A stretch of DNA of 64,000 nt from an uncultured Clostridium sp. Its GTDB lineage: Bacteria; Bacillota; Clostridia; Oscillospirales; CAG-272. The position numbers and the translations under genes were made by a program. Below, in pieces: positions 5,156-64,000 of the stretch (position 1 is the stretch's first letter; every line of letters begins with the position of its first letter). The notes under the pieces are model-generated. The model did no database searches and was not told the origin of the DNA. It was given only the letters and a program-made list of their open reading frames with translations. The stretch lies in contig CAZGJC010000001.1 in assembly GCA_964526505.1 (NCBI GenBank), positions 16,105 through 80,104 of the forward strand. Direction: 5' to 3'.

Positions 5156-5163
5156 ATGATAAA

Positions 5164-5200: not shown

Positions 5201-5202
5201 TA

Positions 5203-5451
5203 TTAGTCTGTTACGTAAGGAAGAAGGGCTGCCTGACGTGCACGCTTAATAGCGGTGTTGAGATCACGCTGGTGAACAGCACAAGTTCCCGAAATTCTTC
5301 TGGGGAGAATTTTTCCACGTTCGCTTATGAATTTGCGAAGTTTTGCGGAATCCTTATAGTCGATATAGGATACCTTATCTGCACAGAAGATACAAACCTT
5401 TTTTCTCTTGCGGACAACAGGTCTCGCAGGACGGTTTTCATTCTTATCCAT
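5203..5451 (-). CDS. rpsR: 30S ribosomal protein S18
   Basis: [50 protein letters not shown] present. Confidence 0.95.
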
Positions 5452-5493
5452 CTTATGAATCCTCCAATTTAAATTTAGGTGACAACGCCCGAC

Positions 5494-5946: not shown

Positions 5947-5959
5947 TATAGCACCTCAA

Positions 5960-32930: not shown

Positions 32931-33106
32931 GAAAATATACCTCGATTTTGATGTAAAGCAAATCACTTTACAGATTATATCACACATTGCGGTAGATGTC
33001 AATAGTTTTATGGCAATTTTTAAAATTTTTCGTACGGATTATTATAATTATTCAAAATAATGGAAATAATCATTTTGCGGTTATCTTTGTGCGTTCCGGG
33101 GGCGTT

Positions 33107-33988
33107 ATGTGTCGGAAATTTTTAAATGGAATTTTTGTGTTTGCGGTTATATGTGTATGCACTATTATATTTTCATCGAGCGTATTAGAAAGAGATGATA
33201 TAACACCTCCGTGTATACGTCTGAAAAACGGTGACTGCATAAAATCATTGATTGGAGAAGGCATTTCTTTTTTGCCATTTCTTGATATTATCGATAACGT
33301 AACACCGTATGAAAAAATAAAAGTGAAAGTGGATTCGTCGGATGTTGATATATATAAAGTCGGCGTATATTATGCAACCGTTACGGCAATGGACAATTCC
33401 GGTAATTTATCAAGCGAAGTGATAAAAGTATTTATTTACAGTGAAGATATTACAAATGAAGAACTTATTGAACTGATACGCCATGACGTTTTGGAAATTT
33501 TAGACGAGTGTGCGACAAAAGAAGAAATATGTCGCAAAATATACTCATTTGTAAAGGAGAAGATACGTTATGGAAAATCGATTAATACCGATGATTATCT
33601 GCAATCTGCTTATTATGGAATGATTTACGGCATCGGAGACTGTTTTACGTCTTGTTCGCTTGCAAGATCGTTTTTGGATTGTTTTAACATAGAATATAAA
33701 ACCGTAAAGAGAAGTGATGGATACACATCGGATACTCACTATTGGTTGCTTGTAAACGTGGGAGATGAGGGAAGTGATGCGTGGTATCATCTTGACTGTA
33801 CACGTCTGAAATACCAGCCTTATCTTATGGGATGTCTTATGACGGATGCACAACTTGAACGTTACTGTAATTACAGATATTCGTATACGGGACAAAATAG
33901 TGATTTGTATTTTTATCGATACGAAAAAGAGTTGTTTCCTAATACGGAAACGAAAGTCATAACTGCGGTATATATGGAGGAACAATGA
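33107..33988 (+). CDS. membrane-anchored transglutaminase-like (Cys-His-Asp) ectoprotein with an Ig-like domain
   Basis: N-terminal TM helix. Ig-like segment YKVGVYYATVTAMDNSGNLSSEVIKVFIY. Transglutaminase core GIGDCFTSCSLA ... THYWLLV ... WYHLD. Confidence 0.75.
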   Translation: MCRKFLNGIFVFAVICVCTIIFSSSVLERDDITPPCIRLKNGDCIKSLIGEGISFLPFLDIIDNVTPYEKIKVKVDSSDVDIYKVGVYYATVTAMDNSGNLSSEVIKVFIYSEDITNEELIELIRHDVLEILDECATKEEICRKIYSFVKEKIRYGKSINTDDYLQSAYYGMIYGIGDCFTSCSLARSFLDCFNIEYKTVKRSDGYTSDTHYWLLVNVGDEGSDAWYHLDCTRLKYQPYLMGCLMTDAQLERYCNYRYSYTGQNSDLYFYRYEKELFPNTETKVITAVYMEEQ

Positions 33989-35508
33989 ATTTTTTAAGAA
34001 AAAACATTCTCGAATATCTTGAAGATGCCGTAAAGACTCATCCATACAAGATTGCGTTTTCTGATGAAAATCACGGTTATAATTTTTTTGAAGTATATGA
34101 TATGGCACGTCACATCGGAAGTTATATTTCATCTGTTGTCGGCACGGGAGAGTGTGTTGCAATTTTTATGGACAGAAGTGCCGAGGCGATAATTGCGTTT
34201 TTGGGAGCGGTTTATGCCGGTTGTTTTTATGTTTGCATCGACGTAAATGCACCGATTTTTCAAATTAAGTCGATCTTTGATACGACTACGCCGAAAATTG
34301 TAATTTACGACGAGAAATTTGAAGACATTTTGGAAAGCTTATGCCGTGATGTTTGCAAGGCAAAATTCTGCGACACTCGAATATACACGATAAATGAGGT
34401 AGAACTTGACAAAATACGCCGAGAGCAAACAGATGCGGATATTATGTATATTGTGTTTACGTCGGGTTCTACCGGTGTACCAAAAGGAGTCTGTGTCTCA
34501 CATGCATCTGTGATAGACTACACAGAAGCACTTTGCGAAACACTTGGATTTGATGAGAACTGCGTATTCGCTTGTCAGTCAGCTTTGTTTTCGGATGCAC
34601 CGTTAAAAGAGATTATGACAACGCTTAAATGTGGTTGTACTACGTATCTTGTGCCGAGTGAGATTTTTAAAACGCCGTATATTTTATGTGATTTTTTGAA
34701 TAGCCATAAAATAAATGCAGTTTGCTGGGTTCCGACGGCATTAAGTTTGATATCATCACTGGGATTGCTTGAAAAAAATAAGCCGATGTATCTTGATAAA
34801 ATTTGTTTTATGGGAGAGGAATTTTCAAGAGGAGAATATTTGAAATGGCGAGCGGCGTATCCGAAAGCATTTTTTTGCAATTTATACGGTCCTACCGAGG
34901 CTACCGGTACGTCTTGCTTCTGGGTGGCGAACAGAGAAATTGCCTGCGGTGAATCTATACCCATCGGAAAACCTTTTCCCAACACTCAAATATTGCTGAT
35001 AGGTCAAGACGGAAACATAGTGTCAAAAGAAGATACTTGTAAATTTGGCGAAATATATATCAAAGGCAGGTGTTTGAGCAACGGATATTACAATGATTCT
35101 GTAAGATCGAACAACGTGTTTGTTCAAAACCCGTTAAATGAACTTTACCGTGACATAGTGTATAAGACCGGGGATATTGCCAAGTACAACAAGTTTGGAG
35201 AACTTGTTTTTGTTTGTCGTTCCGATTTGCAAGTTAAACGAGGAGGACGTCGTATTGAACTGACGAGTATAGAATCCGTTGCCAAAAACTGTGGTGAGGT
35301 AACTTCTGCCTGCTGTATTTATTTTAAAGAGAATGATAAAATAGTTTTGTTTTATACGGGAGATGTTGATAATGCATCTTTGTATGTTGGTTTAAAAACT
35401 TATTTGCCCAAATATCATTTGCCTGACAGAATAGTCCAAATTAAGGAAATGCCGACTACGCCCACGGGGAAAACGGACAGAAACAAACTATTCGAAATGT
35501 ATAACTGA
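33985..35508 (+). CDS. DltA-like carrier-protein ligase (ANL adenylation enzyme)
   Basis: IVFTSGSTGVPKG (A3), NLYGPTEAT (A5), YKTGD (A8), RSDLQVKRGGRRIEL, and PTTPTGKTDR (A10). 507 aa with no condensation or thioesterase domains. ATGA overlap with the upstream gene. Confidence 0.85.
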   Translation: MNFLRKNILEYLEDAVKTHPYKIAFSDENHGYNFFEVYDMARHIGSYISSVVGTGECVAIFMDRSAEAIIAFLGAVYAGCFYVCIDVNAPIFQIKSIFDTTTPKIVIYDEKFEDILESLCRDVCKAKFCDTRIYTINEVELDKIRREQTDADIMYIVFTSGSTGVPKGVCVSHASVIDYTEALCETLGFDENCVFACQSALFSDAPLKEIMTTLKCGCTTYLVPSEIFKTPYILCDFLNSHKINAVCWVPTALSLISSLGLLEKNKPMYLDKICFMGEEFSRGEYLKWRAAYPKAFFCNLYGPTEATGTSCFWVANREIACGESIPIGKPFPNTQILLIGQDGNIVSKEDTCKFGEIYIKGRCLSNGYYNDSVRSNNVFVQNPLNELYRDIVYKTGDIAKYNKFGELVFVCRSDLQVKRGGRRIELTSIESVAKNCGEVTSACCIYFKENDKIVLFYTGDVDNASLYVGLKTYLPKYHLPDRIVQIKEMPTTPTGKTDRNKLFEMYN

Positions 35509-35521
35509 GGAGCGATGCAAG

Positions 35522-35749
35522 ATGAACGAACTTGTTGATTTATTGTCGGATATACGACCGGATGTGGATTTTATAAATGAAACAAGACTTATGGATGACT
35601 GTATACTTGATTCTCTTGATGTTGTAACGATTATTACCGAAATAGTCGAAAGGTTCGACGTTTCTATATCTCCTGAGAATATAACGTCTGAAAATTTTAA
35701 TTCGGCGAATCGTTTGTACAAACTTATATTGAGTCTTGGGAATAGATAA
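35522..35749 (+). CDS. DltC-like aminoacyl/acyl carrier protein
   Basis: 75 aa. ILDSLDVVTIITEI carries the phosphopantetheinyl Ser in a DltC-like context (compare B. subtilis DltC LLDSFGTVELL). Confidence 0.8.
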   Translation: MNELVDLLSDIRPDVDFINETRLMDDCILDSLDVVTIITEIVERFDVSISPENITSENFNSANRLYKLILSLGNR

Positions 35750-35750
35750 A

Positions 35751-37244
35751 ATGGAATTTACGTCGTGGATATTTGTGGCGTTCTTTATTTGTACATTGTT
35801 TTTGTACTACCGTATAAAGTATAAATTCCAATGGAGTGTCCTGCTTATTGCAAGTGTTTTTTTCTATTGGTCGACCGATTTCAGATTTTGTTTGTTTATT
35901 TTATTTACATCTTTTTCTGTTTGGATTGGCGGAATTGCAATGGAACGCTTAAAGCGGAGAAAAAAGACAATTCTTTGCATTGTCATTTTGTTGAACGTTT
36001 TTATTTTAATTGCCTTGAAATTTCGCAATTTGATGTTAACAGGTGTGCTTGATATAACGCAAACTCAAAAAATATTTCTTCCTCTCGGAATATCATATTA
36101 TACTCTCCAAAGTATAGGTTACATCATAGACCTATACCGTGGCAATACTGAATGTGAAAAAAGTTATGCTAAGTTTTTCCTGTTTGTCGCTTTCTTTCCA
36201 CAACTTGTGCAGGGACCCATATCAAGATATGGGCAGCTTGCAGAACAATTTTACGAGCCTCACTACTTTCGGTGGAACGTTATATCTTCGTCCTTTTTGC
36301 GTATTTCATTCGGTTACTTTAAAAAGATAGTTATTGCCGATGCTGTTTTTGGCGTTGTTAAAACAATCTCATCATTGCCGGATGTTTACAATGGCGGTTA
36401 CATGCTTGTACTTATAATTGCCTATTCTGTGACAATATACGCAGATTTTACTGGTGGAATGGATATAGCGATTGGCGTAGGGGAAGCGTTTGATTTAAAA
36501 ATGGCGGAAAATTTCAACCGACCGTTTGCGTCTGAAAATTTTGCGGAATACTGGAAAAGATGGCATATATCCCTGGGTGCGTGGTTTCAGGACTACATAT
36601 TCTATCCGCTTTCGGTTAGCAAACCAATGCAAAAGATTTTCAAATTGTGCAGAAATAAATTCGGCAAAAAAATCGGAAGACGAATACCTGTTTATATTTC
36701 TACATTGATTGTTTGGTTTGTGACGGGGATGTGGCACGGGTTGAGTTTTAATTTCATTACATGGGGAATTATCTGTGGCATAATTCTTATTATTTCACAA
36801 GAATTAAAGCCGGCATATGCTAAATTTCACGGCAAATACCCGCATCTTTCAAAGACGAAATATTATAAAATGTTTTGCAGGGTAAGAACATTTTTCATAG
36901 TCGGCTCTGTTCGTTTGTTGGATTTATACCAAGACGTGTGCCGTGCGTTCGCAAATTTTGCAAGTATATTTTATTGCTCGGATGGATGGATTGATATATT
37001 TTACAATGGCGGTCTGTTGCACCTTATTAGTCTTGATAAGTGCGTGACGGTAACGGTTGGGGTATTGCTCATATATATTGTGAGCAAACAGAGAAGCGAT
37101 ACGAAAACGTACTTGCAACGTAAGATATGCAATAGCCCGATGTTGACATGTTTATGCTTATCGTTTATAACGATTGCAATAGTGCTTTTCGGTTCGTATG
37201 GATTAGAATACGATGTATCGGCATTTATATACAACAAATTCTAA
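35751..37244 (+). CDS. MBOAT-family membrane O-acyltransferase (DltB/AlgI-like)
   Basis: Polytopic. NFAEYWKRWHISLGAWFQDYIFYP and WFVTGMWHG (the conserved MBOAT His). Confidence 0.88.
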   Translation: MEFTSWIFVAFFICTLFLYYRIKYKFQWSVLLIASVFFYWSTDFRFCLFILFTSFSVWIGGIAMERLKRRKKTILCIVILLNVFILIALKFRNLMLTGVLDITQTQKIFLPLGISYYTLQSIGYIIDLYRGNTECEKSYAKFFLFVAFFPQLVQGPISRYGQLAEQFYEPHYFRWNVISSSFLRISFGYFKKIVIADAVFGVVKTISSLPDVYNGGYMLVLIIAYSVTIYADFTGGMDIAIGVGEAFDLKMAENFNRPFASENFAEYWKRWHISLGAWFQDYIFYPLSVSKPMQKIFKLCRNKFGKKIGRRIPVYISTLIVWFVTGMWHGLSFNFITWGIICGIILIISQELKPAYAKFHGKYPHLSKTKYYKMFCRVRTFFIVGSVRLLDLYQDVCRAFANFASIFYCSDGWIDIFYNGGLLHLISLDKCVTVTVGVLLIYIVSKQRSDTKTYLQRKICNSPMLTCLCLSFITIAIVLFGSYGLEYDVSAFIYNKF

Positions 37245-37268
37245 ACAATGAGTTGAAAAATAAAGTGT

Positions 37269-38321
37269 ATGTTTATAAAAACAAGTGTGAAATGGATAAC
37301 GACAATTATTCTGTTCATTTTTGTGACGTGTGTGTTTCTGTATTTATTTGGGAAAATAACGTCTCCGAAATATACAGATATCCCCGAAGGCAATTTGATA
37401 TCTGAATATTATGACGATGTAGAAGCGAACGTTTACCATCAGGTTGTTTTTATTGGTGATTGCGAAGTGTACGAATCTTTTTCTCCTCCTGTTCTTTGGG
37501 AAAAATATGGGATAAGTTCTTACGTTCGTGGCAGTGCAAGCCAAACGATATGGCAATCGTATTACCTTTTGGAGGAGACGCTGAAATATGAATGTCCGAA
37601 CGTAGTTGTGGTAAACGTTTTGTCAATGAAATACGACAAGACAAAACGTGAAGAGTACAATCGTATGACTATTGACGGGATGAAAATGTCAAGTTCGAAG
37701 GTAAAATCCATTATTGCGTCAATGAGTTACGAGGAAAGTTTTTTGTCTTATTTGTTTCCGATATTCAGATATCATTCACGGATCCCGGAACTTAATGTCT
37801 ACGATTTTAAATATGCCTTTGAGCGTCCCGGCGTTTCTTTCAACGGATATCTTATGCAGAAAAGCATCTGTGGAAGAGTGGAAACTTATGAAGAGATGAC
37901 AGAGGAGGCAGAGAATATAATCCACACAGAGAAATTGCCGGATATTTGTTTTGAGTATCTTGAAAAAATAAAAGATTTATGTTTTGACAACGGTATAGAA
38001 CTTATACTTGTAAAATCGCCGACGAATTCTCCCGGTTATTGGTGGTATGATGAGTGGGATGTGCAAATTAAAGAATTTGCACAATTGCATGAGTTGGACT
38101 ATTATAATTTTATAAACGACGATGAATTATCAATTGACTGGGAAACGGATACTTATGACGGTGGTGTCCATTTGAATCTTTACGGTGCGGAAAAATTAAG
38201 TATTTATTTCGGCAAGATACTAAGTGAAAAGTATGGCATAAAAAACTTGGGCGATGATAGGGAGATGTCGGGGGTATGGGAGAAAAAGACGAAAAAATAC
38301 GAGGCGGAAAAATATTCGTAG
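37269..38321 (+). CDS. membrane-anchored DltD/SGNH-like protein (putative acyl-transfer partner of the MBOAT)
   Basis: N-terminal TM helix. VVFIGDCEVYESF aligns with SGNH block I / the DltD GSSE motif but has Cys at the nucleophile position. DGGVHLNLYGAEKLS resembles block V (DxxH). Sits in the position that dltD-type genes occupy. Confidence 0.5.
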   Translation: MFIKTSVKWITTIILFIFVTCVFLYLFGKITSPKYTDIPEGNLISEYYDDVEANVYHQVVFIGDCEVYESFSPPVLWEKYGISSYVRGSASQTIWQSYYLLEETLKYECPNVVVVNVLSMKYDKTKREEYNRMTIDGMKMSSSKVKSIIASMSYEESFLSYLFPIFRYHSRIPELNVYDFKYAFERPGVSFNGYLMQKSICGRVETYEEMTEEAENIIHTEKLPDICFEYLEKIKDLCFDNGIELILVKSPTNSPGYWWYDEWDVQIKEFAQLHELDYYNFINDDELSIDWETDTYDGGVHLNLYGAEKLSIYFGKILSEKYGIKNLGDDREMSGVWEKKTKKYEAEKYS

Positions 38322-48053: not shown

Positions 48054-48776
48054 ATGAGTAGAAAAATATTTTGTTTTATGATTGTGGTGGCGTTGTTTCT
48101 TGCTTGTTTGGTGTCTTGTTCACCTGCGTCGGACAATGACAGTGAAAACGGTAATCAAGATTCCAATAAAATCGGTACATTCGGATATAAATTATCCGAC
48201 GACGAAAAATCGTATGTGGTTACAAGCATTGGAACGTATAAAAGTCCAGACGTTTTGATACCTGCTGAATATAACGGAAAACCGGTAGTGGCAATTGACG
48301 ACTCGGCATTTTTTAAATGTACCGGCATAGAAACCGTTGACTTTGAAAGCGATAGCAACGTAACGAAAATAGGAGAGTATGCGTTTAGCGGTTGTGTGAA
48401 TTTAAAAAGCATTAAAATACCGAACAGCATAACGCATATAGGAAAAAGTGCATTCGGAAACGGTGCCGTGATTGTCGGAGGAAACAGTATAATTGCCGAT
48501 GCTTGTACGAGTCTTGAAAGTGTATTGTTTGGTGAATCTTGCAGAGTTTCTTCGTTTGAATATGCGTTGTTTAGCGGCTGCACTGCACTCAAAGAAATCG
48601 AAATCCCACGAAGTGTCGGTCAAATCAACGAAAAAGTTTTTCTCGGATGTGACAATTTGCAAACTGTTATTTACCGAGGCACACTTGAAGAATGGAATAA
48701 TATTCCAAAGGGAAGACAGTGGATTTTAAATACGGACAGTTGCACGATACGTTGCACAGACGGAGATGCACAGTAA
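48054..48776 (+). CDS. leucine-rich-repeat (BspA-type LRR) lipoprotein
   Basis: Lipobox LVSC. Repeats such as AFSGCVNLKSIKIPNSITHIGKSAF and FSGCTALKEIEIPRSV. AGGAGG RBS present. Confidence 0.75.
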   Translation: MSRKIFCFMIVVALFLACLVSCSPASDNDSENGNQDSNKIGTFGYKLSDDEKSYVVTSIGTYKSPDVLIPAEYNGKPVVAIDDSAFFKCTGIETVDFESDSNVTKIGEYAFSGCVNLKSIKIPNSITHIGKSAFGNGAVIVGGNSIIADACTSLESVLFGESCRVSSFEYALFSGCTALKEIEIPRSVGQINEKVFLGCDNLQTVIYRGTLEEWNNIPKGRQWILNTDSCTIRCTDGDAQ

Positions 48777-50289: not shown

Positions 50290-51111
50290 ATGTATAACAA
50301 ACTTTTGACTTGCCTTAAAAGCATAAAGGAAAAAACTGATTTTAAACCGTACGTCGGAATAATTCTCGGTTCCGGACTCGGTGCTTATGCGGAAGAAATT
50401 GAAGTTGAAGCGGTTATAAATTATGATGAAATCGACGGATTCCCCACCTCAACCGTCGCCGGACACAAAGGTCGTTTTGTTTTCGGATACGTTCGTGGCG
50501 TTCCCGTTGTTATTATGCAGGGAAGAGTTCACTATTATGAAGGGTATGCCATGTCCGATGTTGTTTTGCCAACAAGAATAATGGGTATGCTCGGTATAAA
50601 GAAACTTCTCTTGACAAATGCGGCGGGTGGAGTGAATACAAGTTTTTCCGCAGGTGACCTTATGATGATCACCGACCAAATAGCAACTTTTGTACCCAAT
50701 CCCTTGCTTGGAAGAAATATTGATGATTTCGGAGCAAGATTTCCGGATATGAGTGAAATTTACAGCAAAAAACTCAGAGAATGCATACTATCTGCCGCAA
50801 GCAAATGTAATATCAATTTAAAACAGGGCGTTTACATGCAATTGACAGGTCCGAGTTATGAGTCTCCTGCCGAAGTAAGAATGTGCAGAATTCTCGGAGG
50901 AGATGCCGTTGGTATGAGTACGGCTTGCGAGGCGATTGCTGCAAGACATATGGGTATCGAAGTTTGCGGTGTTTCCTGCATTACAAATATGGCGGCGGGA
51001 GTTCTTGATCAAAAACTCAGCCACAGTGAAGTTCAGGAAACCGCTGACAGAGTGGCGGTGCAATTTAAAGCCCTTGTTACCGAAATTATAGACGAAATCG
51101 GTCATATTTAA
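50290..51111 (+). CDS. punA: purine nucleoside phosphorylase (trimeric PNP/PunA type)
   Basis: GIILGSGLG, GHKGRFVFG, MQGRVHYYEG, and GADAVGMSTACEAIAARHMG. Confidence 0.92.
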   Translation: MYNKLLTCLKSIKEKTDFKPYVGIILGSGLGAYAEEIEVEAVINYDEIDGFPTSTVAGHKGRFVFGYVRGVPVVIMQGRVHYYEGYAMSDVVLPTRIMGMLGIKKLLLTNAAGGVNTSFSAGDLMMITDQIATFVPNPLLGRNIDDFGARFPDMSEIYSKKLRECILSAASKCNINLKQGVYMQLTGPSYESPAEVRMCRILGGDAVGMSTACEAIAARHMGIEVCGVSCITNMAAGVLDQKLSHSEVQETADRVAVQFKALVTEIIDEIGHI

Positions 51112-54613: not shown

Positions 54614-54690
54614 TGGTGGAGACAGCAGAACTCGAATCTGCGACCCCTTGCATGTCAAGCAAGTACTCTAACCAACTGAGCTATGCCTCC
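54614..54690 (-). tRNA. tRNA-Val (anticodon GAC), CCA encoded
   Basis: The minus strand reads GGAGGCATAGCTCAGTTGGTTAGAGTACTTGCTTGACATGCAAGGGGTCGCAGATTCGAGTTCTGCTGTCTCCACCA. It folds by hand into a cloverleaf: a 7-bp acceptor, a GCTC/GAGT D stem, anticodon stem CTTGC/GCAAG with loop TTGACAT, and T stem GCAGA/TCTGC with a TTCGAGT loop. Confidence 0.93.
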
Positions 54691-54805: not shown

Positions 54806-55474
54806 TCAGTATCCCGAACCCTGAATGCCTTTTACTGCTTTTACGACTCTACTCGTTCCGAGTCGTGATGCACCTGCGTCGATAAATGCCTGTGCGTCGT
54901 CAAGACCGGAAATTCCTCCTGCCGCTTTTACGAGAACGCCATCGCCTACGTTATCGTGCATAAGTTTAACGTCCTGTAATGTTGCACCGGCACTTGAAAA
55001 TCCCGTGGACGTTTTAATGTAGTCGGCACCCGCTTTTGTAACAATTTTGCACATTCGGATTTTTTCTTCGTCCGAAAGTAAACATGTTTCGATTATAACT
55101 TTGAGGATTTTGTTTCCGCAAGCCTTTTTGATTTGATGTATTTCTTCACAAATGTCGTCGTCTTTGCCTTCACGCAAAAGACCGACGTTGATAACCATAT
55201 CGATTTCGTCCGCACCGTTGTTTATTGCGTCCGAAGTTTCAAAAACTTTTACTGCGGTTGTGTTGTATCCGTTGGGAAAGCCTATTACCGTACAAACAGC
55301 AAGTTTGTCTCCTACGTATTCTTTTGCTTGCTTTACAAAACTCGGGGGGATACAAACCGATGCGGTAGAATACTTCATTCCGTCGTCGCATATTGCTTTA
55401 ATATCTTCCCACGTCGCAGTTTGCGAAAGAAGCGTATGATCACATTTTGATAAGATATTTTGAATGTCTGCCAT
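54806..55474 (-). CDS. deoC: deoxyribose-phosphate aldolase
   Basis: [32 protein letters not shown] (Schiff-base Lys), and VKAAGGI. Confidence 0.95.
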
Positions 55475-55699
55475 TTTAAAATTCCTTCCTTTATTTATAG
55501 TTTAATTTTCCGCTTTGATTATACAAAAAAAAACTTTATCTGTCAACCGATATTTGAAAAATATTTGTAAAATCACGGTAGCGACATATGCTTAAAGTGC
55601 AATCATAAAATCAACAAAAATTATGCAAAAAATAGTCACAAAAAAAGCACCTGACAATATTGCATTTTGTACGAAAAATTTCCCGAGTACAAAAAACTG

Positions 55700-55728
55700 T
55701 TGCGTTCTGTCGATAAATGTGATATAAT
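55700..55728 (+). promoter_or_regulatory. sigma-A-type promoter for the RDD-family gene
   Basis: TTGCGT (55700-55705), 17 nt, TATAAT (55723-55728) with a TGa extended -10. Confidence 0.55.
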
Positions 55729-55858
55729 ACTTTGTGATAGATTTAGAATGTGCTTTTGCGGTCAGGCGAAAGTGCCAACATTATTCGAGTTTTTTACACG
55801 TAAAATGACGTTTTACGTGCTTTTGGATTTGCTCGAATCATTCGGAAGGAATCGGCGT

Positions 55859-56623
55859 ATGATTTGTGATTTGCAGAAAGCAAGCCTTTGGAAAAGAATA
55901 TCGTCACTTTTATTTGATTTTATTATTTTGGCGGTCGTTGCCATCGGAATAGGAGTCCTTATGTCGGCACTTGTGGGGGTCGATAACGATATTGAGGCTT
56001 TTGAAAAACTCCAGGCGGCATACGAAGAAAAATACGGTATTAAATTTGATGATTATTCCGAGAACTACGATAATCTGACCGAAGAAGAATTGAAAAAATA
56101 CGAAGAGGCGGACAGGGAATTGAACGCCGATAAAGAGATACGTGGTCTCTATGAAAAAATATTCAACAAATCCATTATAATTGCCGTTGTCGGTATTTTA
56201 TGGGCGTATATGATTTTGGAATTCATGATTCCGCTTATATTCGGTAACGGTCAAACGCTCGGAAAGAAAATATTCGGATTGGCGGTTATGCGAACAAATT
56301 CGGTAAAAGCCAAAACGATAGTACAATTTATAAGAATGTTGCTCGGCAAATTTACAATAGAAACTATGGTTCCCGTATTTATGGTGATCATGGTTTGGTT
56401 TGGTGTACTTAATCTCGGAACCGGATTGATTATTGTCGCCGGCATACTTATTCTCGAAATAATAGCTATGGCAACTACGAGAACCAATTCCGCAATACAC
56501 GATCTTCTTGCGGATACGGTCGTGGTTGATGTAAACACGCAGATGATATTTGAAAATGAACAGGAAATGATTGCTTATATGCAAAAGATACACGAAGAAA
56601 AGGTATCTAAAACAACGTATTGA
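55859..56623 (+). CDS. RDD-family membrane protein
   Basis: ASLWKRISSLLFDFIILAVV (RDD-type N-terminus), three or four TM helices, and GQTLGKKIFGL.V. Start at the ATG at 55859 (GGAAGGA RBS). The upstream part of the 55667 ORF contains the promoter. Confidence 0.7.
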   Translation: MICDLQKASLWKRISSLLFDFIILAVVAIGIGVLMSALVGVDNDIEAFEKLQAAYEEKYGIKFDDYSENYDNLTEEELKKYEEADRELNADKEIRGLYEKIFNKSIIIAVVGILWAYMILEFMIPLIFGNGQTLGKKIFGLAVMRTNSVKAKTIVQFIRMLLGKFTIETMVPVFMVIMVWFGVLNLGTGLIIVAGILILEIIAMATTRTNSAIHDLLADTVVVDVNTQMIFENEQEMIAYMQKIHEEKVSKTTY

Positions 56624-56685
56624 TTGTCGATAAATTACTTCGATAAAAAATAAATAAGTATATACACTCATGGAGGTTAGATGAA

Positions 56686-57780
56686 ATGAAAGTTGAATTA
56701 CGAAATCTAACAAAAATCTTCCCGAGCCGTAACAAAAAGTCTAATGATACGGTAACAGCAGTAAACGATTTTACCTTTACCGTCCCGGACGGAACTCTCG
56801 TAGGTCTTCTCGGACCTTCCGGTTGCGGTAAAAGTACAACGCTTTATATGATAAGCGGTTTGCAGAAACCCTCTTCGGGACAGATATTTTTTGGTGATGA
56901 AGATGTAACAACGCTTTCCCCCGAAAACAGAGGAGTAGGTCTTGTGTTCCAGAACTATGCTCTTTATCCGCATATGACTGTAAAGCAGAACATTATGTTT
57001 CCGCTCCAAAACCTTAAAGGTAAAGACAAACTTCCCAAAGAAGAAATGCTTGAACGTGCATATCAGGTGGCGAAACTTGTTCAGATTGATGAACTTATGG
57101 ATCGTAAGCCCAGTGAACTCTCGGGTGGTCAGCAACAGAGAGTTGCTATTGCGAGAGCATTGGTAAAAATGCCTCGTGTACTTCTTTTGGACGAGCCTCT
57201 GTCAAACCTTGACGCACGTCTCCGTCTCCAAACGAGAGAAGAAATTCGCCGTATCCAAAAAGAAACGGGAATTACAACTTTGTTTGTAACTCACGACCAG
57301 GAAGAGGCGATGAGTATATCCGACCTTATCGTTGTTATGAAACTCGGTGTTATCCAGCAGGTTGGAAAGCCTCAGGAAATTTACGATAACCCCACAAACC
57401 TTTTCGTTGCGAAATTCCTCGGAACGCCCCCTATTAACGTGTTCCGTGGCAGAGTTGAAAACGAAATGCTCTATATCGGTGCCGAGGCGGTTCTTCCCAC
57501 ACCCGGTGTGTGCGACAGAGACGTAACCGTTGGCATTCGTCCCGAGGCATTTGTTCCCAACGCCGACGGTGAATTTTCTTGTAACCTTTCCAACGTTGAA
57601 GTTATGGGACGTGATATGAGTGTTGTATGTACTAACGACGCATCTCTTAACCCCATTGTAAGAGCGATTGTTAACTCGGATATTAAGATTGACGTTACAA
57701 ATGAAACAATCAAGTATTCTTTGAAGCCTCATAAGGTATTTATCTTCGACGCTGAAACAGAAGAGAGAATATATTTCTGA
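56686..57780 (+). CDS. ABC transporter ATP-binding protein (MalK/MsmK/UgpC type with a C-terminal TOBE-like domain)
   Basis: GPSGCGKST, LSGGQQQRVAIARAL, LLLDEPLSNLD, and VTHDQ. Confidence 0.93.
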   Translation: MKVELRNLTKIFPSRNKKSNDTVTAVNDFTFTVPDGTLVGLLGPSGCGKSTTLYMISGLQKPSSGQIFFGDEDVTTLSPENRGVGLVFQNYALYPHMTVKQNIMFPLQNLKGKDKLPKEEMLERAYQVAKLVQIDELMDRKPSELSGGQQQRVAIARALVKMPRVLLLDEPLSNLDARLRLQTREEIRRIQKETGITTLFVTHDQEEAMSISDLIVVMKLGVIQQVGKPQEIYDNPTNLFVAKFLGTPPINVFRGRVENEMLYIGAEAVLPTPGVCDRDVTVGIRPEAFVPNADGEFSCNLSNVEVMGRDMSVVCTNDASLNPIVRAIVNSDIKIDVTNETIKYSLKPHKVFIFDAETEERIYF

Positions 57781-57791
57781 GGAGGTAAAAT

Positions 57792-58730
57792 ATGGTTGAC
57801 AGTAAACACCAATGGAAAGCGTGGCTCTATTTGGCACCTGCAATAATATTGCTTCTTATATTTACGGTTTGGCCAATTATCAATACCATCCGTATGGCTT
57901 TCCTCGAAGATTACAGTATGCTTGCTTCTTTGGGAGGCAAGAAGTTTGATTTCGGATTCGGCAACTTCAAAAAGGTCGTTGAATATTCGCAGTTCAAGAC
58001 TTGTTTGAAAAACACTCTTTTGCTTTGTGTACTCACAGTTCCGATTTCTACCATTCTTGCACTCGTAATAGCGGTATGCCTTAATTCTATTAAGTTTTTG
58101 CAGAAATTCTTGCAAACGATATTCTTCTTGCCTTACGTTACAAACTCAATTGCAATAGGAATGGTATTTGCCGCAATGTTTAACATTGTCGGTAATACGG
58201 CTGCGGAAAACGGAGTAATAACCACGGCGGGCGTAATAAACAATATACTCGGCGTGTTCGGTATAAGTCCCATCAACTGGATAAATGCAGGCTCGTCTTA
58301 TTGGGCTAACATATGGGTAATGGTAATTTACATCGTATGGAATGCACTTCCGTTTAAGATACTTATACTTCTCGGCGGATTGCAGAGTGTAAACAAGCAG
58401 TACTACGAAGCGGCTAAAATCGACAGTACGCCGAAACTTCGTGTGTTCACAAAGATAACTGTTCCGCTTCTTTCTCCTATGATTGCATACGTTGTAATTA
58501 CCGGATTTATCGGCGGATTTAAGGAATATACGAGTATTGTCGGTGTATTCGGAGACAATATGGGTCCTGCCGGAGATAAAGGACGACTTAATACCATGGT
58601 CGGATACATTTACGATGCTTTGACCAATCATCAAGGACGTGCATCTGCCGCCGCTCTTATCTTGTTCGGCATAATTTTCATAGTTACTATGATAAACCTT
58701 TACGTCAGCAAGAAGAAGACGCATTATTGA
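57792..58730 (+). CDS. carbohydrate-type ABC transporter permease (MalF/UgpA-like)
   Basis: Six TM helices. EAAKIDSTPKLRVFTKITVPLLSP matches the EAA loop. Confidence 0.9.
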   Translation: MVDSKHQWKAWLYLAPAIILLLIFTVWPIINTIRMAFLEDYSMLASLGGKKFDFGFGNFKKVVEYSQFKTCLKNTLLLCVLTVPISTILALVIAVCLNSIKFLQKFLQTIFFLPYVTNSIAIGMVFAAMFNIVGNTAAENGVITTAGVINNILGVFGISPINWINAGSSYWANIWVMVIYIVWNALPFKILILLGGLQSVNKQYYEAAKIDSTPKLRVFTKITVPLLSPMIAYVVITGFIGGFKEYTSIVGVFGDNMGPAGDKGRLNTMVGYIYDALTNHQGRASAAALILFGIIFIVTMINLYVSKKKTHY

Positions 58731-58747
58731 TTGAGGAGGCTTAAAGT

Positions 58748-59635
58748 ATGTCAGAAATAAAGATTATGCAAGAGCGTGACATTCAAAAAGTTTCCACGGC
58801 TCAAAAAGTAAAGGGCGTACTTTCCCAGGTGGGTCTTTACGTATTCTTGCTTATTATGGCGTTTATAGTTCTTTTCCCGTTTTATTGGATGATTATCTCG
58901 TCTCTTAAATCAATGGACGAATATTATTTGACGGTTCCTACGATTATACCAAAAACCGTTGTTTGGAAAAACTATATCGACGCATTTTCAACCGCAAATA
59001 TCGGAACGCTTTTCAAAAACACTGTTTTTGTAGGTGTGGTTTCGACAATTCTTTCACTTGTTGTAACCGTTCTTTCCGCATTTGCGTTTGCACGCCTTGA
59101 ATTTAAAGGCAAAAACGCACTCTTTGCCGCACTTCTTGCGACGATGATGATTCCCGGTGAACTTTTCACCATTACAAACTATTCAACCGTCAATACGTTC
59201 GGTTGGATGAATACGTATACGGTTCTTATAGTACCGTTCCTTGTAAGCGTGTTCTACATTTATTTGTTAAGACAAAACTTTATGCAAATACCAAATGAAC
59301 TTTACCTTGCCGCAAAGGTTGACGGTACAAGCGATTTCAAATATTTGCTTAAAGTTATGATTCCGCTTTCTCTCCCTACTCTCATCTCTATTACGATTTT
59401 GAAGATGATGGGTTCGTGGAACTCGTACGTATGGCCTAATCTTGTTGCCAACGACGACGCACACCTTCTTATCACCAACGGTCTCAGAGGTGCAGACTTC
59501 ACGGTAGACGAACTTGTAAACTATCCCGTACAGATGGCGGCGGTTGCAATAGTATCGTTCCCTCTGTTCCTCGTATTCCTCTTCCTCAGAAAGTATATTA
59601 TGAAGGGCGTATCGAGAAGCGGTATAAAAGGTTAA
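58748..59635 (+). CDS. carbohydrate-type ABC transporter permease (MalG/UgpE-like)
   Basis: LAAKVDGTSDFKYLLKVMIPLSLP matches the EAA loop. Confidence 0.9.
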   Translation: MSEIKIMQERDIQKVSTAQKVKGVLSQVGLYVFLLIMAFIVLFPFYWMIISSLKSMDEYYLTVPTIIPKTVVWKNYIDAFSTANIGTLFKNTVFVGVVSTILSLVVTVLSAFAFARLEFKGKNALFAALLATMMIPGELFTITNYSTVNTFGWMNTYTVLIVPFLVSVFYIYLLRQNFMQIPNELYLAAKVDGTSDFKYLLKVMIPLSLPTLISITILKMMGSWNSYVWPNLVANDDAHLLITNGLRGADFTVDELVNYPVQMAAVAIVSFPLFLVFLFLRKYIMKGVSRSGIKG

Positions 59636-59704
59636 TCGCTTTTGCTCCCGCTTGTGCGGGATATGGGCTTTAACAATAAAAAATAAAAAAGGACGGAAAA
59701 CAAA

Positions 59705-61144
59705 ATGAAAAAGGTACTCGTAGCATTACTTTTGCTTGCAACGATTGTCTTTAACAGTATCGCACTTGCCTCTTGCAGTAACAAGAAGTCAAACAACGGT
59801 AAGTTCGTATACGAAGCTGGTATGACCTATGACGGCAGTGAAGTAACAATTACTTTCTCTCACACAATGGGTCAGAACCTCAGAGACGTTTTGGACAAGT
59901 ACATTGCAAAATTTAACGATATGTACCCGAATATCCACATTGAACACACTCAGGACGGTGGATATGACGATGTTCGTGACAAGATAAGCACCGAACTTAC
60001 GGTTGGCAACCAGCCTAACATTGCTTATTGCTATCCTGACCACGTTGCTCTTTACAATCTTGCAGGTGCGGTAGTTACTCTTGACGACCTTATCAATAGT
60101 ACAGCAACTGTAACACGTAAAGACGGAACAACTGAAACGCTCGGCTTCACGCAGGCACAACTCGATGATTTCATCGACGCTTACTACGAAGAGGGAAGAG
60201 CATTCGGCGACGGTAAAATGTACACACTTCCTATGGTTAAGTCCACAGAAGTTCTCTACTACAACGTAGACTTCTTCAAAGAGCATAACCTCACAGTTCC
60301 CACAACTTGGGACGAAATGGAAACACTTTGCCAGAAAATTCTCGAAATCGACCCTAACTGTGTTCCTCTCGGTTACGACTCAGAACCTAACTGGTTCATC
60401 ACAATGTGTGAACAGTACGGCTCGGATTATACAACCGCTGACGATACCGCAGATAGCCACTTCCTCTTTAATAACGAGAAAAACAGAGAGTTTGTTGAAA
60501 GATTCTCCGAATGGCACTCCAAAGGTTACGTAACAACTCAGGAAATTTACGGCTCGTACACGTCCGGTCTTTTCACAACAACCGATTCCGGTAAGACAAA
60601 ATCTTATATGTCCATCGGTTCTTCCGCAGGTGCAACTCACCAGAGACCTACTGCCGATGAAGAGGGTAACTATCCTTTCGAAGTTGGTATAGCAACAATT
60701 CCTCAGGTTGACGCATCTAACCCCAAGGTTATTTCTCAGGGTCCGTCCCTCTGTATATTCAACGGTCACTCTGACCAGGAAACAATCGCTTCTTGGCTCT
60801 TCGTGAAGTACCTCACTTCTTGTGTAGACTTCCAGGCAGAGTTCGGTATGGCTTCCGGTTACGTTCCCGTAATTGAATCTGTATCTCAGAATGAAAAGTA
60901 TGCTTCCTTTATGGAAGGTGCAGACGGCTATGATAACGTAGCGGCACTCTCCGCAAAGGTTTGTCTTGAACAGAAAGACGCTTACTACGTATCTCCTGCA
61001 TTCAATGGCTCTTCCGACGCTCGTGACGAAGTAGGTGCATTGCTCCAAAAATGTATGGTTGAATACGCAAAAGCAACCGATAAGAAAAAGATGATTGCCG
61101 ATAACTTTGCTACGGCAGTTGCAAACTGCGAATATAAGCAGTAA
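59705..61144 (+). CDS. ABC transporter extracellular solute-binding lipoprotein (family 1 / CUT1-like)
   Basis: Lipobox LASC. 479 aa with typical SBP_bac_1-like composition. The ligand is unknown. Confidence 0.85.
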   Translation: MKKVLVALLLLATIVFNSIALASCSNKKSNNGKFVYEAGMTYDGSEVTITFSHTMGQNLRDVLDKYIAKFNDMYPNIHIEHTQDGGYDDVRDKISTELTVGNQPNIAYCYPDHVALYNLAGAVVTLDDLINSTATVTRKDGTTETLGFTQAQLDDFIDAYYEEGRAFGDGKMYTLPMVKSTEVLYYNVDFFKEHNLTVPTTWDEMETLCQKILEIDPNCVPLGYDSEPNWFITMCEQYGSDYTTADDTADSHFLFNNEKNREFVERFSEWHSKGYVTTQEIYGSYTSGLFTTTDSGKTKSYMSIGSSAGATHQRPTADEEGNYPFEVGIATIPQVDASNPKVISQGPSLCIFNGHSDQETIASWLFVKYLTSCVDFQAEFGMASGYVPVIESVSQNEKYASFMEGADGYDNVAALSAKVCLEQKDAYYVSPAFNGSSDARDEVGALLQKCMVEYAKATDKKKMIADNFATAVANCEYKQ

Positions 61145-61158
61145 TTCAGAGTTTTGAA

Positions 61159-62490
61159 ATGAAGCATATTTCAAGAATTTTATTGATATGTCTTCTCATC
61201 GGTGTTATCGCAGGATGCTTTGTGTCCTGCGACACCGGGAAGGATGACCAAAATGGTGACGACAAACTCGAATTTGTCGATTACGTTTCACAACTCAAAC
61301 TTGATATGACGTCGAATACCAATAAAATCGAAGTTACGGTAAAGCAGTATATCGACGGTGATACGACGCACTTCAACGTTCCCACTTCCGTTTCCGCAAA
61401 CGGTATCCTTAAAGCAAGATACCTTGCCGTAAATACACCCGAATCCACGGGTAAAATCGAGGAATGGGGAAAGAAAGCGTCTAATTATACCAAAGAAAAA
61501 CTCAAAAGTGCAACTTCGATATACATAGAGAGCGACGATGACAATTGGAACGTTGACTCTACGGGAAGCAGATACCTCGTTTGGATTTGGTATAAGACAG
61601 CAGAAGATGAAGATTATAGAAATCTCAATCTCGAACTTTTGCAAGAGGGACTTGCAATTGCATCTAACTCTGCAAACAATCGCTACGGCGAATACTGTAT
61701 GAACGCAATAAACCAGGCAAAAGCACACCTTTTGTACGTTTACTCCGATGAGAAAGACCCTGATTTCTACTACGGTGAATATCAGGAAGTTACGATAAAA
61801 GAACTTCGTACAAATCCCGAAGCATACGTTGGAACAAAGGTTGCATTTGAAGGCATTGTTTCCAAAAACACAGGCGATAACGGTGTGTTCATCGAAGCCT
61901 TTGATGAAGAAACGGGCGTTTATAACGGTATACAGGTTTACTACGGATTCAGTTTCTCGGGACTTTCAATCTTGAAACCCGGAAATAAGGTGCGTATGAT
62001 TGGCTCAATGCAATATTATGAGGCAGGCGGAACGTACCAAATATCCGACGTAAAATACAGTGCATTTGAAGATGTTACCATTAAGAAACTTGAAAGCGGT
62101 ATTGATGTGGCATTCACCGAAATAGACGCAGAAACGTTCCTTAACGGTAAGGTAAGTGTTACGGTTATGGTTGACGGCGAAGAAACCATTAAGGATTTCA
62201 AATACGCCGAACTTACTCTTAACACTTCCGTGTCTATGAAAAACCTTAAAGTTGAAGAAGTTTACACCACAAATAACGGCGGTTCATCCGACGGAGCAAT
62301 GACTCTTACTTGCAGCGTAAACGGCGAAAGAATTTCCGTTCGTACAACGGTTCTTACAGATGACAATAAAAACGTTATCACCGCAAGTGCCTTTGAGGGT
62401 AAAACCATAGACGTAAAGGGAATTATCGACTATTATGACGGTAGTTACCAGATAAAAGTATTGTCCATTAAGGACATAAACATCCAGTGA
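61159..62490 (+). CDS. lipoprotein with a staphylococcal-nuclease (SNase/thermonuclease)-like domain followed by OB-fold-like and beta-rich domains
   Basis: Lipobox FVSC. YIDGDTTHFNV...ARYLAVNTPES...GSRYLVWIW...LLQEGLA parallels SNase IDGDT / RLLLVDTPE / GRGLAYIY / LVRQGLA. The downstream segment GTKVAFEGIVSK..GVFIEAFDEE..IQVYY resembles the OB folds found in secreted nucleases. Confidence 0.72.
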   Translation: MKHISRILLICLLIGVIAGCFVSCDTGKDDQNGDDKLEFVDYVSQLKLDMTSNTNKIEVTVKQYIDGDTTHFNVPTSVSANGILKARYLAVNTPESTGKIEEWGKKASNYTKEKLKSATSIYIESDDDNWNVDSTGSRYLVWIWYKTAEDEDYRNLNLELLQEGLAIASNSANNRYGEYCMNAINQAKAHLLYVYSDEKDPDFYYGEYQEVTIKELRTNPEAYVGTKVAFEGIVSKNTGDNGVFIEAFDEETGVYNGIQVYYGFSFSGLSILKPGNKVRMIGSMQYYEAGGTYQISDVKYSAFEDVTIKKLESGIDVAFTEIDAETFLNGKVSVTVMVDGEETIKDFKYAELTLNTSVSMKNLKVEEVYTTNNGGSSDGAMTLTCSVNGERISVRTTVLTDDNKNVITASAFEGKTIDVKGIIDYYDGSYQIKVLSIKDINIQ

Positions 62491-62516
62491 TTTTTTTCAA
62501 AAATTAAGGAGTTATT

Positions 62517-64000
62517 ATGAAAAAAGTATTAGTGCTTATACTCGCTCTTGTGCTTTGCATTTCTGCTTTTGCAGTTGTGGGATGTAGCAAGAAAGATGAA
62601 GAATACGACCTTGACAGTGCAACAGCATACGTAAAGAATTTGTATAAGAAATACCTCGACGCCGAAACCCCCTCTGACTTCACTCTCGTTTCTCAGTTCG
62701 TAAGCGACGGCGTAACGTACACCATCACTTGGACAACCAATTCCGATAAGGTAAAAGTTGTTGAAGGTGACAAAGAAGTAACAATCGACGTTGATGAAAA
62801 ATCCGAAGAGGATGTAAGTTATACACTTACGGCAACAATTAAAGCCCCCGACGGAACAACAAAAACTCTTGAATTTAAGTGTAAAGTTCCTAAGTTTGAA
62901 TTGAACTCTCATGATGAATACATTGCCGCCGCATCGGGCGATACTGTTATAGTTCAGGGCGTTGTAGTGGCTATTCACTCTAAGACTGTAAACAGCGAAG
63001 GTAAGAACCAACTTTATCTTGCTGATTTGAGCGGTGAGGGCGGTTATTACGTATATTATCTCACTTCACAGGATCCTTTGGAACTTGGCATCAAACTCGG
63101 TATGACAGTTCAGATTACAGGTCAAAAAGATATTTATAACGGTGTTCACGAAATCAAAGAGGCTTCTGCCGAAATCATTGATTCCACAATTAAGGAAGTA
63201 ACTCCCGTAGATATCACCGAAACGTTCAAGAACGCAGAAGACGCTAAAGCTGACGCACTCCTTAATAAGGTTGGTATGCTCGTAACCATTAAGGGCGTAG
63301 AAATCACAACACAGGATTTCTCCTCTGACGCTTACCTTAAATTCAGACTTGGTAATATAGAGTCCTACGTTCGTGCAAAGAATGTTCCTACGAGTGTTTC
63401 CGATGATGATCTTGCAAGCATTAAGAAAGGTCACTCCGAACATAAGGCATGGCTCGCAAACGTAACAGGTGTTGTAACCGCTTATAACGGTGCTATTTAC
63501 CTTGAACCCGTTTCCGCAAACGCTTTCGAATATATCTCCGAAATTACAAGAACAGACGCTGAAAAGGTAGAAGTTGAAAAGAATGATCTTACAATTTCTT
63601 CCACGACAATTAAGTCCAACAGCACGATTACACTTCCCACAGCCGGAACTACTTACACAGACGTTAAGATTACATGGGCTTCCGATAACGATGCGGTTGC
63701 TATTACCGATAAGGGTGCAGTTGTAACTCTCGGAAGTGAACAGATAAAAGTAACTCTTACCGCTACACTTACACTTGGTGAAACAACAGTAACTAAGACA
63801 ATAGAACTTACGCTTGAACCCGCTCCCACACTTGTTCCCACAATCGTTGAGAACCCTGTTGCAGGTACGGCGTATAAGTTGCATATCTATCAAGGAACCA
63901 ATAATTCCGACATTTACTTCGCAGGCAAGATGAGCGAATTCTATGGTGCCGTTACTACAAACCATGAAGATGCAGTTGACGTGTATCTCGAAGAAATCGA
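62517..64000 (+). CDS. large surface lipoprotein with OB-fold-like and Ig-like repeat segments; 3' end lies outside the window
   Basis: Not in the ORF track because no stop is reached. My manual translation from the ATG at 62517 (AAGGAG RBS) stays open to position 64000. It reads MKKVLVLILALVLCISAFAVVGCSKK (lipobox VVGC), then TYTITWTTNSDKVKV...VSYTLTATI and VKITWASDNDAVAI...IKVTLTATLTLGETTVTKTIELTL (Ig-like repeats), and DTVIVQGVVVAIHS...LYLADLSGEGGYYVYY (OB-like). Confidence 0.65.
   Translation, partial: MKKVLVLILALVLCISAFAVVGCSKKDEEYDLDSATAYVKNLYKKYLDAETPSDFTLVSQFVSDGVTYTITWTTNSDKVKVVEGDKEVTIDVDEKSEEDVSYTLTATIKAPDGTTKTLEFKCKVPKFELNSHDEYIAAASGDTVIVQGVVVAIHSKTVNSEGKNQLYLADLSGEGGYYVYYLTSQDPLELGIKLGMTVQITGQKDIYNGVHEIKEASAEIIDSTIKEVTPVDITETFKNAEDAKADALLNKVGMLVTIKGVEITTQDFSSDAYLKFRLGNIESYVRAKNVPTSVSDDDLASIKKGHSEHKAWLANVTGVVTAYNGAIYLEPVSANAFEYISEITRTDAEKVEVEKNDLTISSTTIKSNSTITLPTAGTTYTDVKITWASDNDAVAITDKGAVVTLGSEQIKVTLTATLTLGETTVTKTIELTLEPAPTLVPTIVENPVAGTAYKLHIYQGTNNSDIYFAGKMSEFYGAVTTNHEDAVDVYLEEI

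Follow-up and report, generated by a model that had tools for sequence, protein, structure and literature searches.

A conserved lipoprotein and ABC importer cluster of uncultured gut Clostridia with a predicted role in nucleic-acid scavenging

The 64,000-nt stretch of uncultured Clostridium sp. DNA analyzed here (hereafter the window; contig CAZGJC010000001.1, positions 16,105–80,104) ends in a plus-strand gene cluster that combines an ATP-binding cassette (ABC) importer with surface lipoproteins and probably encodes a cell-surface nucleic-acid scavenging system. The importer is Ugp-like, and its cargo would be phosphorylated mono- or dinucleotides. Six tightly spaced genes, three ABC genes followed by three lipoprotein genes, encode an ATPase, two permeases, a solute-binding protein (SBP), a staphylococcal nuclease-like (SNase) lipoprotein and a large modular lipoprotein (Table 1). 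All six lie where a preliminary description, made from the sequence of the window, had placed them, apart from the start of the large lipoprotein (62517, not 62518). The order that it had called unusual, with the ATPase first and the SBP after the permeases, was likewise confirmed. The cluster actually begins one gene earlier, at a gene for an RDD-family membrane protein.

Conservation and gene fusions

With an alignment of the SBP as the query, and each GTDB species represented by one genome, a scan detected a relative of this protein in at least 510 species. The loci of the 80 best of these (L004–L083) were compared, and gene order was judged as far as the fetched DNA reaches. All 80 come from uncultured gut or rumen Clostridia, carrying labels such as Oscillospiraceae, Acutalibacteraceae, Faecousia, Christensenellaceae and similar, with a few apparently mis-binned. 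The order RDD–ATPase–permease 1–permease 2–SBP–SNase–large lipoprotein is unchanged in every one of them; genes are absent only at contig ends, and an RDD homolog lies directly 5′ of the ATPase wherever the flank is long enough. Identity to the window proteins drops along the operon, from mostly 61–87% for the ABC components to 44–63% for the SNase protein and 26–56% for the large lipoprotein. The seven-gene arrangement is far beyond chance, and the SBP clade and the nuclease gene are linked throughout these 80 species loci.

Fusions within the SBP family suggest that all three surface proteins are tied together functionally. Searching 1.84 billion cluster representatives with the SBP yielded 455 clusters at E≤1e-30, of which the best 150 were considered for length; 53 of these 150 hold SBP-family proteins of at least 560 residues. 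P0367 unites SBP and SNase domains in one lipoprotein (SNase-domain match E=9e-44), and it keeps the canonical Asp (DAPEST) at the position of SNase Asp40. In P0330, an OB module that is 59% identical to a module of a large-lipoprotein homolog (E=5e-22) lies N-terminal to the SBP, and in P0341, P0350, P0353 and P0335 the N-terminal domain of the large lipoprotein stands ahead of the SBP. In the cluster the SBP gene comes before that of the large lipoprotein, and the fusions with the opposite order cannot be explained by read-through from one gene into the next. The coupling of surface capture and degradation to the import of a product, which the preliminary description had put forward, is supported by the fixed order in the 80 loci, by the fusions and by the nucleotide-catabolic neighbors described below.

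The three surface lipoproteins

The lipid-anchor cysteines of the three extracytoplasmic proteins, each of which has a lipobox, are invariant or nearly so among homologs. When the SBP was compared as a single sequence with solved structures, 7C0X/7C0F ranked first (6e-18), followed by 9LFF (1e-11) and 4AQ4 (4e-9), with other chains at 6e-8 or weaker; a family profile returned the same order (3e-20, 2.5e-14 and 2e-13, respectively; other chains 3e-11 or weaker). UgpB proteins, which bind sn-glycerol-3-phosphate (G3P), thus rank second after 7C0F/7C0X, and oligosaccharide binders, kinship with which the preliminary description had set against its own proposal, come below both. The 7C0F protein is said, in a FEBS J paper of 2021, to bind glycerophosphocholine (GPC) and G3P too. 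It is listed as the uridylyl-3′-5′-phosphoguanosine (U3G, UpG) binding protein of Thermus thermophilus in SI Table S5 of PMC12718374, which cites Chandravanshi et al. 2021. The window segment PNIAYCYPDHVALY resembles PTMAQAFENNIALY of the Thermus protein.

Two Tyr and two Ser that hold the phosphate (Y64/S143/S266/Y342, next to a Trp clamp W188/W191, in the numbering of PMC12718374) are strictly conserved in UgpB, GPC-binding and U3G-binding proteins, a conservation that does not extend to glucose binders (PMC12718374). In our alignment, Y65/S144/S270/Y346 of E. coli UgpB correspond to Y87/S180/S306/Y386 of the window SBP; all 12 of the 12 family members have this tetrad unchanged, and 7C0X has it as well. 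The Trp clamp for glycerol (W192/W195 in E. coli) is replaced by Pro228 (Ala or Ser in relatives) and Phe231, and is missing in the Thermus protein too. Retention of the phosphate tetrad together with loss of the clamp points to a larger phosphate-bearing ligand, which one being left unproven by these residues. A phosphorylated nucleotide or dinucleotide, rather than (deoxy)ribose, is in our judgment the probable cargo of the window SBP. The best NCBIfam matches of the four ABC components are UgpC, UgpA, UgpE and UgpB, all far under the equivalog cut-offs; at 56.3 bits against a cut-off of 411 (NF008211), the SBP is not a UgpB equivalog. Its residues 1–189 (59705–60271) also match weakly the NCBIfam model of the Mycoplasma ‘P68 family surface lipoprotein’ (lipo_P68; 51 bits, cut-off 200).

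As a separate observation on this family, P0355 (1535 residues) carries the SBP domain embedded between BspA-type leucine-rich repeats; a BspA-type leucine-rich-repeat lipoprotein is encoded in the window at 48054–48776, 8 kb upstream of the cluster.

In the SNase lipoprotein, the SNase domain that the preliminary description had recognized scores well above the PF00565 cut-off (Table 1). It spans residues ~50–200 and is followed by two all-β OB-like domains (residues ~205–443), where the PF13742 OB-fold match is weak. The AlphaFold model (predicted local distance difference test score, pLDDT, 83) aligns in Foldseek with staphylococcal nuclease structures at template-modeling (TM) scores of 0.82–0.86. 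All 31 homologs keep the motifs DGDTTHF, RYL..NTPEST and DSTGxR without change, and likewise R87, E95 and R138, the counterparts of catalytic Arg35, Glu43 and Arg87 of SNase; equivalents of D19/D21 and T41 are also kept. Motifs kept so strictly speak for a working enzyme, possibly one that uses metal differently, and by sequence and model the protein looks like an active nuclease. Staphylococcal nuclease yields 3′-phosphorylated mono- and dinucleotides.

The 494-residue fragment of the large lipoprotein in the window was modeled with a pLDDT of 89 as an N-terminal β domain, two OB-like barrels (residues ~140–345) and an aBig_2 immunoglobulin-like domain (residues 355–433). Foldseek retrieved the tandem-OB HIN-200 DNA-binding domains, with a probability of 1.0 but a TM score of ~0.4, and immunoglobulin arrays as well. 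The OB-like region weakly matches the N-terminal region of the NCBIfam ExeM/NucH model (E=3e-4, 20 bits against a cut-off of 300). Homologs carry PF01336 OB-fold repeats (E=6e-20 and 4e-12), DUF5689 and further repeat modules. The OB folds that the preliminary description had assigned to the last gene are weakly matched in the window protein and clear in its homologs; they are not limited to this gene, since the SNase protein has an all-β OB-like C-terminal half of its own. Only the first ~125 residues are generally alignable across homologs. Complete homologs range from 435 to >1,500 residues, one at a contig end reaches 1,701, and nearly all start with a lipoprotein signal; the ortholog in a contig 95.4% identical to the window has 907 residues. 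Judging from the model and the homologs, nucleic-acid binding by the large lipoprotein is plausible.

Gene neighborhood and cluster layout

Flanking open reading frames (ORFs) were clustered and the recurrent ones named by NCBIfam, counting only loci with at least 2.5 kb of flank (55 downstream, 57 upstream). Downstream, an NrnA-like DHH/DHHA1 phosphoesterase occurs in 36 of 55 loci, a SurE 5′/3′-nucleotidase in 32 and a dGTPase-like HD protein in 15. These nucleotide genes are usually convergent and start 60–140 nt past the large lipoprotein; they lie upstream instead in L040 and on the same strand in L019, L050 and L063, so that the adjacency survives rearrangement. SurE is a 3′/5′-nucleotidase, and NrnA-like enzymes act on short oligonucleotides and pAp. 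The SurE and NrnA-like neighbors lack signal peptides, and their substrates, nucleotides and oligonucleotides, would then have to be intracellular. Upstream, a same-strand gene resembling the PHP 3′,5′-bisphosphate phosphatase/RNase RNM precedes the RDD gene by 51–206 nt in 12 of 57 loci, and DeoB and Pdp (11 loci), DeoD (9) and Tdk (8) also recur. No GlpQ/UgpQ-type diesterase was seen among the recurrent neighbors. In Pfam searches, neither the cluster nor the large-lipoprotein homologs examined showed the domain of a surface phosphatase, nucleotidase or nucleosidase.

The deoC and punA genes, which the preliminary description had pointed out nearby, are both real, but their linkage is restricted. 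Only the 11 closest loci have deoC as a divergent next neighbor, and punA (50290–51111), 5.5 kb from the cluster in the window, was rejected as part of the system because none of the related loci has it within 10 kb. Another part of the window was considered for a nucleoside (Bmp/CUT2) transporter, which would have offered an argument from redundancy; the idea was discarded, the candidate ORFs at 32996–38321 being dlt-like AMP-binding and MBOAT genes. Among them, 33985–37244 encodes an AMP-binding enzyme and, after it, a membrane acyltransferase of the MBOAT type, like the DltA/DltB D-alanylation pair and unrelated to the cluster.

The Logan contig that is 95.4% identical to the window (L085) continues past 64000 with the rest of the 907-residue lipoprotein, another lipoprotein, SurE, two DHH/DHHA1 genes and Tdk. 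The additional lipoprotein (5081–6154 of the contig), encoded directly after the large one, has 357 residues and no Pfam or PDB match. Barnase-like motifs (E..RxSxRI.Y..HY) can be seen in it by eye, and BLASTP against barnase, with an approximate query, gave E=0.004. It may be a second surface RNase; with no Pfam or PDB match and an E value of this size, the barnase-like identity was not accepted and is kept as a lead only. In a more distant locus (L089, 6783–9332), an SBP homolog with 34% identity lies directly after a fusion of NT5C 5′(3′)-deoxyribonucleotidase and guanylate kinase, with DeoC 3.5 kb upstream; this homolog lacks both phosphate-binding Tyr.

Table 1. Features of the cluster and its upstream flank (positions in the window).
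Feature	Position	Strand	Evidence and remarks
deoC (deoxyribose-phosphate aldolase), divergent neighbor, not core	54806–55474	−	PF01791 E=1e-20
Promoter-like site of the operon (putative)	55700–55728	+	A-tract; −35 TTGCGT 55700–55705; 17-nt spacer; extended −10 TGaTATAAT 55720–55728
RDD-family membrane protein, first gene of the conserved cluster	55859–56623	+	PF06271 E=4e-10; 254 residues
ABC ATPase, UgpC/MalK-like	56686–57780	+	PF00005 (ABC_tran) E=3e-37; best NCBIfam UgpC 5.7e-105, under equivalog cut-off
ABC permease 1, UgpA/MalF-like	57792–58730	+	BPD_transp_1 (PF00528) E=6e-18; best NCBIfam UgpA
ABC permease 2, UgpE/MalG-like	58748–59635	+	BPD_transp_1 (PF00528) E=2e-17; best NCBIfam UgpE 8e-30
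Solute-binding lipoprotein (SBP), family 1/CUT1 type, UgpB/U3GBP-like	59705–61144	+	SBP_bac_8 PF13416 4e-35; SBP_bac_1 PF01547 6e-23; lipobox LASC, Cys24
SNase lipoprotein	61159–62490	+	PF00565 38.1 bits, cut-off 21; lipoprotein Cys24 invariant in family
Large modular surface lipoprotein, cut by window end	62517–64000	+	aBig_2 E=3e-13; lipobox VVGC

The core of a binding-protein-dependent ABC importer of the CUT1/Ugp type is complete, with an ABC_tran ATPase, two BPD_transp_1 permeases and a family-1 SBP. For a C-terminal regulatory domain of the MalK/UgpC type, the ATPase falls just below threshold with both OB_MalK (25.2 bits, cut-off 27) and CysA_C (26.7, cut-off 29.7). From the ATPase to the large lipoprotein, the spacers measure 11, 17, 69, 14 and 26 nt, and the RDD gene ends 62 nt 5′ of the ATPase gene. 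A sequence scan found no terminator-like site in any intergenic gap of the cluster, whose base composition is in line with that of the rest of the window. The longest ORF of the RDD gene starts at 55667, and the ATG at 55859 is the probable start, given that RDD homologs align only from residues ~60–68 of the long ORF. The RDD membrane protein appears from its constant position to be a conserved accessory of the cluster.

The putative promoter in Table 1 was missed by a consensus scan because its −35 element fits the consensus at just three of six positions. When the deoC–RDD spacers of the 11 closest loci are aligned, they share conserved A-tract/GTTG and TGTGnTAnnAT blocks; a putative deoC promoter (TTGACA-17-TATAAT, 55546–55518) is kept there as well. 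Between the operon promoter and the RDD start, the 5′ leader contains a terminator-like hairpin (55797–55819), a 10-bp stem followed by CTTTTGG. It was rejected as a conserved element, being missing in the 11 closest relatives and matching no Rfam family, and a riboswitch or attenuator was set aside after Rfam gave no match at E≤1 in 55475–55860. Within the window, the exact 11-mer TGTCGATAAAT has just two copies, one upstream of the RDD gene (55708–55718) and one in the RDD–ATPase spacer (56625–56635); as an operator it was dismissed, since it is not in the spacers of relatives and one such repeat per 1.6 kb is about what chance gives. The 69-nt spacer between permease 2 and the SBP holds a GC-rich hairpin (59647–59660, CCCGC-TTGT-GCGGG) without a T-run, which could affect relative SBP expression. 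The DegV/FakA/PlsY lipid genes are separated from deoC by a tRNA gene (54617–54690, minus strand; Rfam, 67 bits).

Proposed function and comparison with known systems

In the mechanism that we favor, the large lipoprotein would tether extracellular DNA or RNA through its OB folds, and the SNase-OB lipoprotein would cut it into 3′-phosphorylated mono- and dinucleotides, a product type carried over from staphylococcal nuclease. The SBP, to judge from its relatives and conserved phosphate ligands, would capture the phosphate-bearing nucleotide or dinucleotide, and the ATPase with its two permeases would import it. Going by the recurrent neighborhood, cytoplasmic SurE and NrnA-like DHH phosphoesterases, joined in some lineages by the PHP bisphosphate phosphatase, would then release nucleosides, which nucleoside phosphorylases, DeoB, DeoC, Tdk and Apt would pass on to salvage or catabolism.

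The preliminary description had proposed a different cargo, (deoxy)ribose or a nucleoside-derived sugar: nucleic acid would be degraded at the surface to nucleosides or free (deoxy)ribose, and a CUT1-type transporter would import that sugar or nucleoside. We regard this version as unlikely, even though the transporter parts belong to sugar-type (CUT1) families, deoC is adjacent and punA close by in the window, and the closest relatives have DeoB, Pdp and DeoD next to the cluster. A surface enzyme that would remove the phosphate or release the sugar is not among the domains found in the cluster or in the large-lipoprotein homologs examined, and SNase products, as is established, bear a 3′-phosphate. 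The SBP keeps the phosphate ligands of UgpB and its nearest solved relative binds a dinucleotide; the commonest neighbors, SurE and NrnA-like proteins, are cytoplasmic and act on nucleotides and oligonucleotides. Known ABC systems for ribose and nucleosides, moreover, generally use another type of binding protein, RbsB or Bmp/PnrA.

The Ugp matches of all four ABC components, the phosphate tetrad, the conserved Gly/Arg ligands for the glycerol hydroxyls and the GPC and G3P binding reported for the 7C0F protein would also suit a true Ugp-type importer of glycerophosphodiesters or glycerol phosphate. The SNase-like lipoprotein would in that case cleave phosphodiesters at the surface in general, those of teichoic acids or lipid head groups for example, or have nothing to do with the cargo. 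The low Ugp scores (56 against 411 bits for UgpB), the missing Trp clamp for glycerol, the nucleotide enzymes that recur as neighbors in place of a GlpQ/UgpQ-type diesterase, and partner proteins with SNase and OB nucleic-acid modules that are sometimes fused to the SBP make this improbable. Collinearity that is unbroken over 80 species despite the low identity of the SNase protein and the large lipoprotein, recurrent SBP fusions and co-localized nucleotide-catabolic genes leave very little probability for an operon merely shared with an unrelated sugar importer, in which the nuclease and the large lipoprotein would serve biofilm remodeling, foreign-DNA defense or adhesion. Such roles are known for secreted SNase-type nucleases of staphylococci and mycoplasmas (PMC9740415), and the large lipoprotein is adhesin-like in being fast-evolving and variable in length (435 to ~1700 residues).

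Several points weigh against nucleotide scavenging as the function of the cluster. For every member of this family, ligand, transport and nuclease activity are predictions. The window SBP is only ~25% identical to 7C0F, and it conserves Gly346 and Arg440, the equivalents of the UgpB ligands for the glycerol hydroxyls; because the tetrad is common to G3P and GPC binders, the cargo could be another phosphoester. In all 31 aligned members (P0002–P0118), the position of the Ca²⁺ ligand Asp40 of SNase is occupied by an invariant Asn (NTPEST; Asn92 in the window, 61432–61434), which may alter metal use or lower activity. The OB assignment of the window’s own large lipoprotein rests on weak matches (20 bits; TM ~0.4). 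Neither an NrnA-like nor a SurE gene lies within the flank in 19 of 55 loci, and a single co-transcribed unit is suggested solely by the spacing, the terminator-free gaps and the conserved upstream promoter. The kinship with the Mycoplasma proteins discussed below is a likeness of design, drawn from published descriptions.

Among solved relatives, the Thermus protein 7C0F is the closest to the window SBP: the phosphate Tyr/Ser/Ser/Tyr is common to both and the UgpB Trp clamp is absent in both. The window SBP differs in being a lipoprotein with a ~40-residue insertion. We know of no nuclease linkage of the Thermus gene. With E. coli UgpBAEC, the importer of G3P and glycerophosphodiesters, the cluster shares its best NCBIfam matches and the phosphate and Gly/Arg ligands, but it has Pro/Ala and Phe at the W192/W195 positions, the ATPase first and the SBP last, no UgpQ and only sub-cut-off scores.

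Bacillus subtilis YhcR is a wall-anchored endonuclease with OB, SNase and 5′-nucleotidase domains. The preliminary description had seen the last two genes as a split version of it, and this holds for the domain content, namely a surface-attached nuclease with an SNase domain plus OB folds. It does not hold for the rest: the window proteins are lipid-anchored, the SNase domain precedes the OB domains, the function is spread over two proteins and tied to a transporter, and Pfam found no Metallophos/5′-nucleotidase domain, nor was an LPXTG sortase signal seen, in the SNase protein, the large-lipoprotein fragment, the 907-residue ortholog or six homologs. The resemblance to ExeM/NucH extracellular endonucleases is confined to the weak match of the OB-like region, as the 907-residue ortholog has no endonuclease/exonuclease/phosphatase (EEP) domain.

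The closest parallel in design is the Mycoplasma SNase-ABC operon, for which, to our knowledge, transport has never been demonstrated. It comprises the SBP-like lipoprotein P80/P81/MslA, an SNase lipoprotein, an ABC ATPase and two permeases, and has been read as a nucleotide uptake system (PMC3585158, PMC4045577, PMC9740415, PMC12115388). Its SNase lipoproteins include MAG_5040, mhp379, MBOVPG45_0310, MPN133 and MHO_0730; the unit is co-transcribed in M. agalactiae, and M. bovis has deoC and pdp close by (PMC3585158, PMC4045577, PMC9740415). By these descriptions, both systems place a surface SNase lipoprotein next to an SBP-type lipoprotein and a sugar-type ATPase with two permeases, and a model of capture, cutting and import has already been proposed for Mycoplasma. 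The Mycoplasma order is SBP–SNase–ATPase–permease–permease (PMC3585158), of which the Clostridia cluster is a circular permutation with both blocks preserved. The Clostridia SBP has a canonical 479 residues, and nucleic-acid binding seems to be delegated to the hypervariable OB/immunoglobulin-like lipoprotein, whereas the ~700-residue P80/P81/MslA is itself described in PMC4045577 as binding single- and double-stranded DNA. The Clostridia cluster further adds the conserved RDD gene and the linkage to SurE and NrnA-like genes, and its hosts are free-living gut anaerobes rather than minimal-genome parasites.

Little is settled about the uptake of intact nucleotides by bacteria; a decades-old report describes Mycoplasma mycoides taking up deoxynucleotides, and this uptake still lacks an assigned gene (PMC6609329). 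Our literature search found no description of the module outside Mollicutes, which is not proof of absence. As a tentative proposal, the cluster might supply the first candidate genes, outside Mollicutes, for a bacterial importer dedicated to phosphorylated nucleotides or dinucleotides in intact form: a Ugp-derived system in which the SBP would take 3′-phosphorylated SNase products from an OB receptor–nuclease surface complex and NrnA-like and SurE enzymes would finish the process inside, with extracellular DNA or RNA as a major nutrient for hundreds of gut and rumen Clostridia species. Three new arguments about the cargo are testable, namely that the nearest relative is the only solved dinucleotide-binding SBP, that the phosphate ligands are kept and that 3′-nucleotidase/oligonucleotidase genes are linked. 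If true, the proposal would define a family of nucleotide/oligonucleotide ABC importers and would reveal one way in which Oscillospirales-type bacteria, abundant and uncultured, obtain nutrients in the gut from nucleic acid of host, dietary and microbial origin. The old question of which genes import nucleotides becomes here one of direct binding and transport experiments, and the cluster shows the Mycoplasma-type design to be widespread in free-living gut anaerobes.

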